Shown here one piece after another: positions 63,140-63,910 of a stretch of DNA of 64,000 nucleotides (the stretch's first letter is position 1; each line of letters starts with the position of its first letter). The stretch is from Candidatus Thorarchaeota archaeon (GTDB lineage Archaea > Asgardarchaeota > Thorarchaeia > Thorarchaeales > Thorarchaeaceae), in assembly GCA_004524445.1 (NCBI GenBank), contig SDNP01000007.1, forward strand, positions 33,141 to 97,140, read 5' to 3'. The position numbers were made by a program, and so were the translations under genes. The notes beneath the pieces were generated by a model that saw only the letters and a list, made by a program, of their open reading frames with translations, did no database searches and had not been told where the DNA came from.

Positions 63140-63169
63140 CGCACAGGTCACACCGACTTGTGCCAGGAA
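63140..63169 (+). other. 16S intron 1 (30 nt, after about E. coli 908)
   Basis: Removal restores GACTGAAACTTAAAGG; hairpin GCACAGGTC/GACTTGTGC; junctions [ACTG]AA|C and [CAGG]AA|A with outer AAG/CTT pairing. Confidence 0.9.
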
Positions 63170-63613
63170 ACTTAAAGGAATTGGCGGGGGAGCACCACAA
63201 GGGGTGGAGCTTGCGGTTTAATTGGACTCAACGCCGGAAATCTTACCTGCCCAGACAGCCGAATGAGAGCCAGGTTGATGACCTTGCTCGACGAGCTGAG
63301 AGCTGGTGCATGGCCATCGTAAATTCGTGCCGTGAGGTATCAGCTTAAGTGCTGCAACGAATGAGATCCCTGCCACCTAATTGCCAGCCGGGGGCTTCGG
63401 CCCTGCCGGGGCACATTAGGGGGACCGCCATCGAGAAGATGGAGGAAGGTGGGGGCCACGGTAGGTCAGTATGCCGCGATATGGGCAGGGCCACACGCGT
63501 GCTACAATGGCCGGGACAATGTGTTACAACGCCGAGAGGCGAAGTCAATCACTAAACCCGGTCGTAGTCGGAATCGGGGGTTGGAACTCACCCCCGTGAA
63601 CCTGGAATCCCTA

Positions 63614-63643
63614 TCATCTGTAGACTCCCTATAGATGGGGAAA
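63614..63643 (+). other. 16S intron 2 (30 nt, after about 1346)
   Basis: Removal restores GGAATCCCTAGTA; hairpin CATCTGTAG/CTATAGATG; [TCCC]TA|T and [GGGA]AA|G. Confidence 0.9.
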
Positions 63644-63683
63644 GTATCCGCGTGTCACTAACGCGCGGAGAATACGTCCCTGC

Positions 63684-63713
63684 CGGCGCCGAGATTACCT
63701 CTGTGCCGGGGAA
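63684..63713 (+). other. 16S intron 3 (30 nt, after about 1386)
   Basis: Removal restores GTCCCTGCTTCTTGCACAC; [CCCT]GC|C and [GGGG]AA|T. Confidence 0.88.
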
Positions 63714-63816
63714 TTCTTGCACACACCGCCCGTCGCTCCATGCGAGCGGGTTTGGGGTGAGGCTGTGTCCATTGGGCGCAGACGAATCTTGGGCTCGCAA
63801 GTAGGGAGAAGTCGTA

Positions 63817-63846
63817 ACTGAGTTACGCTTCGTGACTTGGCGATCA
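63817..63846 (+). other. 16S intron 4 (30 nt, after about 1499)
   Basis: Removal restores GAAGTCGTAACAAGG; hairpin CTGAGTTACG/CGTGACTTGG; [GTCG]TA|A and [CGAT]CA|A. Confidence 0.9.
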
Positions 63847-63878
63847 ACAAGGTATCCGTAGCGGAAGCTGCGGATGGA

Positions 63879-63910
63879 AGAAGGTGAGAGTCATTCTCGT
63901 CTTCCATTAT
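63879..63910 (+). other. 16S intron 5 (32 nt, after about 1531)
   Basis: Removal restores TGGATCACCTCCT; hairpin GAAGGTGAGA/TCTCGTCTTC; [GATG]GA|A and [CATT]AT|T. Confidence 0.9.

Follow-up and report, generated by a model that had tools for sequence, protein, structure and literature searches.

The window, i.e. the whole 64,000-nt stretch of DNA that was analysed, ends with a 16S rRNA gene (62266-63921, forward strand) composed of six exons and five putative mini-introns, referred to as I1-I5. The gene is matched by the archaeal SSU model of Rfam (RF01959) at 62266-63852, with a score of 1212.6 bits over model positions 1-1478. This match breaks off before the end of the gene owing to the last two inserts (I4 and I5), and the 3' end of the gene is given by the tail TCACCTCCTAA that follows I5. 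The last exon (63911-63921, forward strand) is 11 nt long (UCACCUCCUAA) and carries the anti-Shine-Dalgarno sequence; this tail is conserved both in relatives that have I5 and in those that lack it. The contig ends at the last base of the window, 79 nt 3' of the gene. The flanks of the gene are predicted by RNAduplex to form a pre-16S processing stem (−62.4 kcal/mol) with the 5' half at 62122-62232 and the 3' half, which reaches the contig end, at 63927-63999 (both on the forward strand). A decayed sixth intron copied from a tRNA-Ala intron was considered for the stretch 63923-63953 and rejected: the common 12-mer has a chance-like E value of 2.5, and most of the stretch (63927 onward) lies inside the predicted processing stem.

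As for the host, the assembly is a metagenome-assembled genome (MAG) of 2.79 Mb in 64 contigs, with a completeness of 90% and a contamination of 5.4%. It is labelled G000 below, the other G-numbers denoting compared genomes. One 16S copy was found in it, and no 23S gene is assembled. The M1 peptidase adjoining the 16S gene has 61-89% identical copies almost only in Candidatus Thorarchaeota MAGs, and this level of identity between the neighbouring proteins and Candidatus Thorarchaeota MAGs bears out the Asgard source that the initial annotation had considered probable.

The inserts were located by reading the sequence and by script parsing, and the script returned the same coordinates and lengths (30, 30, 30, 30, and 32 nt) as had been annotated initially. 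Sites are numbered according to E. coli rrsH, in which four primer-site strings (at 907, 1392, 1492, and 1529) and AATCGCTAG (at 1339) served as anchors; the positions proposed earlier (908, 1346, 1386, 1499, and 1531) agree with them. All inserts lie on the forward strand. I1 (30 nt, 63140-63169) follows A908, I2 (30 nt, 63614-63643) follows A1346, and I3 (30 nt, 63684-63713) follows C1386. I4 (30 nt, 63817-63846) follows A1499, which places it six nucleotides 3' of the decoding-centre residues A1492/A1493, and I5 (32 nt, 63879-63910) follows A1531, where it separates helix 45 from the anti-Shine-Dalgarno tail. At 30-32 nt no ORF is possible in any of them, which is in line with the earlier statement that they hold no mobility gene.

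The five inserts have a common layout, cA4.N1N2|N3-hairpin-cB4-N1N2|N3. In this layout, four exon nucleotides (cA) are followed by bulge A, which consists of two exon nucleotides and the first intron nucleotide. Then come a hairpin spanning 23 or 25 nt with a stem of 8-11 bp (helix h', present in 5/5 inserts), four intron nucleotides (cB) complementary to cA, and bulge B, which consists of two intron nucleotides and the first nucleotide of the next exon. The central helix formed by cA and cB is ACUG/CAGG in I1 (3/4 positions paired), UCCC/GGGA in I2 (4/4), CCCU/GGGG in I3 (4/4, including one G-U), GUCG/CGAU in I4 (4/4), and GAUG/CAUU in I5 (4/4). Bulges A and B read AA|C and AA|A in I1, UA|U and AA|G in I2, GC|C and AA|U in I3, UA|A and CA|A in I4, and GA|A and AU|U in I5. 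As for the hairpins, I1 has a 9-bp stem and a 5-nt loop by greedy counting (8 bp and 7 nt with the terminal C-G open), I2 has a 9-bp stem and a 5-nt loop, the stem of I3 comprises nine positions with one C-U mismatch, and the hairpins of I4 and I5 have 9-10 and 10-11 bp, respectively.

Each insert shows the core of an archaeal bulge-helix-bulge (BHB) motif, namely a 4-bp central helix and two 3-nt bulges that hold the splice sites on opposite strands. The outer exon-exon helix h has 3 bp in I1 (AAG/CUU), which gives the full hBHBh' motif, and 0-1 bp in I2-I5, which are relaxed HBh'-type substrates. The initial description of the inserts as BHB substrates of the splicing endonuclease EndA is therefore retained with respect to the central helix (3-4 of 4 positions) and the two 3-nt bulges, but the strict hBHBh' form is restricted to I1. 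Given the relaxed motif, cleavage of I2-I5 needs an EndA of the broad-specificity (alpha-beta)2 type. The predicted cut after the second bulge nucleotide agrees with the rule for tRNA introns, in which the central helix contains anticodon positions 34-35 and cleavage occurs at 37/38 (Yoshihisa 2014, PMC4090602). For I3 and I5, this is the only register that yields the product seen in intron-less relatives.

Assuming a pairing chance of 6/16 at each position, we calculate a probability of about 1e-7 for finding, in a fixed register, four helices with 4/4 pairs and one with 3/4. A loose BHB scan (central helix of at least 3 pairs, stem of at least 5) was uninformative, with 241 matches in the 16S gene, and was replaced by a strict hairpin-BHB scan (central helix 4/4, stem of at least 9 bp, loop 3-9). 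The strict scan reports 140 sites in the 5.58 Mb of strand of the whole genome (0.025 per kb), and within the 1.66-kb 16S gene it reports three of the five introns.

In the alignment with RF01959, proposed initially as a check, I1 is directly visible as a clean insertion of 30 nt that separates ...CUGAA from ACUUAAAGG. The 1340-1390 region is mis-aligned, with confusion at about model positions 1300-1330, and the alignment stops short of the true 3' end. An Rfam scan of positions 58000-64000 returns the SSU match only, with no core of a group I or group II self-splicing intron; inserts of 30-32 nt are far from the several-hundred-nt catalytic core by which these classes are defined.

To compare the gene with its relatives, 16S alignments of first 19 and then 39 genes of the same family and phylum, together with E. 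coli, were used. Every one of the five sites is free of the insert in some family members, which read exactly the insert-deleted sequence: GACTGA|AACTTAAAGG at 908 (I1), GGAATCCCT|AGTATCC at 1346 (I2), GTCCCTGC|TTCTTGCACAC at 1386 (I3), GAAGTCGTA|ACAAGGTATCC at 1499 (I4), and GCGGATGGA|TCACCTCCT at 1531 (I5). The restoration of conserved motifs by exact removal, as claimed in the initial annotation, thus has a natural counterpart in the ligated exons of intron-less relatives at 5/5 sites.

A 16S gene is detectable in 40 of the 86 family genomes, and 39 sequences were compared. In these, mini-introns that share the layout of I1-I5 and measure 29-33 nt follow E. coli positions 696, 908, 1339, 1346, 1363, 1375, 1386, 1499, and 1531, and larger introns of 740-900 nt and 616 nt are found at 908 and 973, respectively, with six family genomes having no 16S intron at all. 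The maximal number of mini-introns per gene is five, reached in G000 and G002. The survey of relatives suggested at the outset reveals that all five sites are occupied in other genomes as well: site 908 in about 14 genomes (counting both mini and large introns), site 1346 in G001 and G002, 1386 in G002, G003, G024, and G055, 1499 in 11 other genomes, and 1531 in 7 others. G002, an independently assembled genome of a different genus, carries an intron at each of the five, and the stems of these introns are diverged but compensated. Compensatory stem changes are also seen in the I2 homologues of G001 and G002, and I1 of G012 is near-identical to that of G000. Similar units are found in other sampled Asgard families at 908 (37 nt), near 1527 (31 nt), and at 1397 (33 nt).

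Two side observations concern the same set of genes. The Rfam 16S match stops at model position 828 in G016:C48, G011:C42, G007:C77, and G018:C13, and likewise in G041:C5, G079:C4, G076:C29, and G012:C33. This position is some 27 model positions before site 908 (~855), and some of the contigs end soon after it; in many family genomes, introns near 908 apparently disrupt the model alignment as well as the assembly. In addition, G026 and G037 (L002 and L003; 1.4-Mb Asgard genomes of another family) carry 42-47-nt inserts after E. coli ~159, flanked by TGGG.AA| ... CCCA AA| and having a 4/4 central helix, which may be either BHB introns at another 16S site or a variable helix.

Covariation was evaluated by counting pairs on the named BHB and hairpin structure, with 500 shuffles and with partners slid by 1-3 columns as a control. 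At 908 (I1), 1386 (I3), 1499 (I4), and 1531 (I5), represented by 7, 5, 12, and 8 sequences, the fraction of paired cells is 92.0%, 92.3%, 94.9%, and 96.4%, and the number of pairs changed on both sides is 7, 4, 6, and 6, respectively. At all of these sites the score is reached by 0 of the 500 shuffles, and the slid-partner controls have 20-58% of cells paired. The compensatory changes expected of a BHB intron are hence present at these four sites. At 1531 they include the central helix itself, which in G080 is formed by exon GCUG and tail CAGC vs GAUG/CAUC elsewhere, i.e. an A-U pair between exon and intron is switched to C-G. The 11-nt tail UCACCUCCU is kept in 8/8 I5-carrying genomes, which represent several genera.

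Both a splicing endonuclease and an RNA ligase are encoded in the genome. The PF01974 genes are two EndA paralogs (187 and 209 aa), each with N- and C-terminal endonuclease domains, and the ligase RtcB is found with 600 bits. The first EndA has an effectively gap-free alignment with chain 3P1Z_B of Aeropyrum pernix EndA (E 7.5e-50), which covers the QP..KP...F..PL stretch. We take this stretch to be the Crenarchaeota-specific loop known from Hirata 2011. The second paralog is far more divergent. An (alpha-beta)2 EndA with an L1 insert has been reported in Asgard archaea and linked to relaxed-BHB cleavage (Kaneta 2018); judging from their sequences, the two paralogs fit this heteromeric type.

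Splicing of the pre-rRNA would then proceed in four steps. Each insert would fold into its 8-11-bp hairpin (helix h'), after which its 4-nt 3' tail would pair with the four exon nucleotides lying two positions upstream of the 5' splice site, creating a 4-bp helix between two 3-nt bulges. The heteromeric (alpha-beta)2 EndA would cut after the second nucleotide of each bulge, and RtcB would ligate the exons and probably circularise the 30-32-nt intron. Cleavage and ligation of I1-I5 in vivo are what we infer from sequence. Since exact removal restores the gene, the geometry is that of a BHB motif, homologues exist and covary, and the enzymes are present, the inserts are taken as archaeal BHB introns in their minimal form, an ORF-less hairpin, and are very probably spliced.

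Parts of the stretch are present in 20 public runs, of which 14 are metatranscriptomes from salt lakes and wetlands. The runs were placed on positions 62200-64000 as short Logan contigs. For I2, contigs in RNA runs X5 and X6 (from two studies) stop at 63613 and continue with GTATCCGCGTG. For I4, AGAAGTCGT is joined to 63846 onward in one RNA run, and for I5, 63878 is joined to TCACCTCCT in that same single run. The exon sequences at these junctions are family-wide and identical in intron-less relatives, and the RNA contigs derive from several Thorarchaeota, judging by the SNP pattern, though next to I2 there is a g1-genus-like fragment. Therefore, the junction contigs are not attributable to the source organism; they are compatible with splicing, falling short of proof. 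A contig from a DNA run has the I5-less junction with a different downstream flank, which means that intron-less relatives exist in nature, and DNA run X1 represents a 98.7%-identical relative distinct from the source strain.

More generally, 16S fragments at least 99% identical to the G000 gene are abundant in salt-lake metatranscriptomes (runs X5-X12), and close relatives, one of them without I5, occur in the DNA of microbial-mat metagenomes (runs X1-X4). Coverage gaps over the introns and joints at 62818, 63131, 63190, 63206, and 63737 were considered as a splicing signal and rejected, as they are attributed to other organisms or variable regions.

A rival reading is that the inserts are not spliced out in full. 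Cleavage and ligation are separate steps, and an 11-nt last exon is an awkward substrate for a ligase, so that EndA might cut without subsequent joining and leave a 16S rRNA in pieces, similarly to bacterial intervening sequences, or the anti-Shine-Dalgarno tail might be trimmed off at I5. We consider this very unlikely: RtcB is encoded, RNA contigs with ligated-type junctions exist, the conservation of UCACCUCCU is expected only if the tail is used, and the region around the decoding centre would have to be put together from six fragments, two of which measure 32-40 nt.

Retention of the inserts in mature 16S rRNA, as small expansion segments or extra hairpins, appears to have an even slimmer chance. 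Large expansion segments are known in Asgard rRNAs (Penev 2020, PMC7594248), and the ligated-type RNA junctions are not attributable to the source organism. However, expansion segments are located in variable regions, and none of the five inserts is: all lie inside invariant strings, splitting the 907-926 primer site, the decoding-region strand in the 1390s, the base of h44, and the h45/anti-Shine-Dalgarno junction, with the h44-base insert six nucleotides from A1492/A1493. Moreover, presence and absence vary within one family with base-exact boundaries, and a hairpin that is kept would have no use for a 4-nt tail covarying with the exon. An assembly artefact or chimera, or a decaying rRNA pseudogene, is scarcely credible, since, although the completeness and contamination values of the MAG and the contig end just after the gene could be cited in its favour, an artefact is ruled out by stems that are diverged but compensated in independent assemblies of several genera (G002 has all five introns, and G012 has a near-identical I1), and the gene is the sole 16S in the assembly, with exons fully conserved at 1212 bits despite the inserts.

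Reading the inserts as spliced BHB introns, one may ask where they come from. ARAGORN reports 34 tRNA genes in the genome, 19 of which have introns, and 9 of these 19 introns are 30-35 nt long according to its calls. The introns of tRNA-Glu(CUC), tRNA-Cys(GCA), and tRNA-Val(CAC) consist of N3, a 9-bp hairpin with a pyrimidine-rich loop, a 4-nt tail, and 2 nt. The tRNA introns with the 16S-like layout number at least three, some of them at non-canonical positions; examples are C40:20004-20034, C40:25238-25267, and that of the C41 tRNA-Val. The 23S genes of three relatives each have one 30-31-nt insert with the same BHB-hairpin layout: at position 2600 in G009 (L097, about 4100-4129), at position 2701 in G002 (L098, about 4201-4231), and at 23S position 3208 in G003. 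The 23S genes of these relatives have larger inserts too (210 and 429 nt). Since tRNA and 23S introns have the same layout, the 16S introns belong to a population of ~30-nt hairpin introns that extends across the genome to tRNA genes and, in relatives, to 23S genes.

No recent copy of any 16S intron was detected in the genome by blastn-short, which gave chance-level matches only (E of at least 0.59). The closest resemblance is that between I5 and the tRNA-Ile intron (7900-7931, 32 nt), with 18/32 same-offset identity and a 9-mer in common, GAGAGTCAT, that covers the distal stem and loop. This 18/32 match is reached by 0 of 599 background hairpin-BHB candidates and is not significant after correction for the few hundred possible intron pairs; a common origin of the two sequences is suggestive only.

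At site 908 large introns provide another possible source. In G009 the intron is 848 nt long and encodes a 262-aa LAGLIDADG_3 protein (L016:2464-3252), and the 908 introns of G020 and G094 have 900 and 740 nt, respectively. The 47-nt intron of G019 at this site has 15/16 and 12/17 terminal bases in common with the G009 intron, its termini also being like those of G020. To judge from these shared termini, it looks like a deletion remnant of the large 908 intron type, which would make at least some 908 mini-introns deletion remnants. No similarity between I1 and the large 908 introns was detected, and no homing gene is seen at sites 1346-1531 in the 39 sequences compared.

A bolder and rather doubtful possibility is that the unit of hairpin and 4-nt tail is an actively spreading protein-free family, which would be retargeted via the tail alone and move among tRNA, 16S, 23S, and possibly mRNA. 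It could spread by reversal of the EndA/RtcB reactions at the RNA level with reverse transcription, or with the aid of a nuclease acting on alleles that lack the intron. Such spreading fits with units that keep one size and layout in the different gene classes and are scattered patchily among close relatives, and with the same-offset match of I5 with tRNA-Ile; the absence of significant 16S-intron copies and the failure of the I5/tRNA-Ile match under pair correction speak against it. TnpB-assisted homing was tried as an explanation and rejected, as no 14-16-nt match to a ligated junction (a guide-like copy) lies beside a TnpB-like gene in G000. The ORFs downstream of 16S in G001 and G002 have no Pfam match.

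For practical purposes, three of the introns fall on primer sites: I1 interrupts the 907-926 target, I4 interrupts the 1492-1510 target, and I5 is located in the 3'-terminal primer region. Near-full-length 16S surveys would consequently under-detect or mis-size these Asgard archaea, and covariance-model annotation truncates the intron-bearing gene. From the point of view of biology, this lineage would need five extra EndA/RtcB events to make its small subunit, including the rejoining of the 11-nt anti-Shine-Dalgarno exon and a splice six nucleotides from the decoding centre, and ribosome assembly would be tied unusually tightly to the tRNA-splicing machinery. Minimal protein-spliced introns have bloomed genome-wide in a sister lineage of eukaryotes, in tRNA, 16S, and 23S genes alike, and the Thorarchaeota mini-introns offer a natural system for intron gain and loss without mobility genes.

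Among the known systems, the closest are the 16S introns catalogued by Jay & Inskeep 2015 (PMC4496867), who list 13 archaeal loci: 374, 548, 722, 781, 803, 901, 908, 919, 978, 1093, 1205, 1213, and 1391. The list includes hairpin-only introns of <50 nt at several loci in Thermoproteales, Desulfurococcales, and Aigarchaeota; ORF-less hairpin BHB introns of this size having been described in 2015, the kind is already known. As in that set, the introns described here are ORF-less hairpins with a BHB at the exon-intron junctions, hit the most conserved 16S stretches and interrupt universal primer sites, vary in presence among relatives, and co-occur with LAGLIDADG introns at 908 (here in G009). 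Unlike the thermophilic TACK hosts of the published introns, the present hosts are Asgard archaea (Thorarchaeota) from microbial-mat and salt-lake samples. The same list supports the earlier view that 908 is a recognised locus and the other four are not: 1346, 1386 (the nearest published locus being 1391), 1499, and 1531 are outside the 13 loci, as are 696, 1339, 1363, and 1375 of the relatives. Even at 908 the published introns are ORF-containing or remnant and none is a hairpin, unlike I1. The Thorarchaeota mini-introns also differ from the published ones in being very uniform (29-33 nt) and in numbering up to five per gene.

Non-canonical-position tRNA introns with a relaxed BHB (HBh'/hBH) in Thermoproteales (Yoshihisa 2014, PMC4090602) and in the Asgard Atabeyarchaeia and Freyarchaeia (Valentin-Alvarado 2024, PMC11291895) involve the same enzyme system and motif, but for Asgard archaea the work outside subscription journals reports introns in tRNA only, whereas the host gene here is 16S rRNA. 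LAGLIDADG-encoding archaeal rRNA BHB introns are spliced by the same mechanism and have site 908 in common with I1; in contrast to them, I1-I5 have no coding capacity, and no sequence similarity is detectable. The archaeal group I intron at SSU/1498 (Nawrocki 2018) belongs to a different intron class from I4. The Asgard literature covers abundant tRNA introns (Valentin-Alvarado 2024, PMC11291895), the EndA type (Kaneta 2018), and rRNA expansion segments (PMC7594248), and in the literature outside subscription journals no report of BHB introns in Asgard or Thorarchaeota 16S genes was found. The 11-nt terminal exon, the density, and the uniform format are remarkable features of the gene. What is new in comparison with these systems is the Asgard host, the four sites beyond the 13 loci, the presence of five introns in one gene, and the uniform ~30-nt format, which the tRNA introns of G000 and the 23S introns of relatives have as well.
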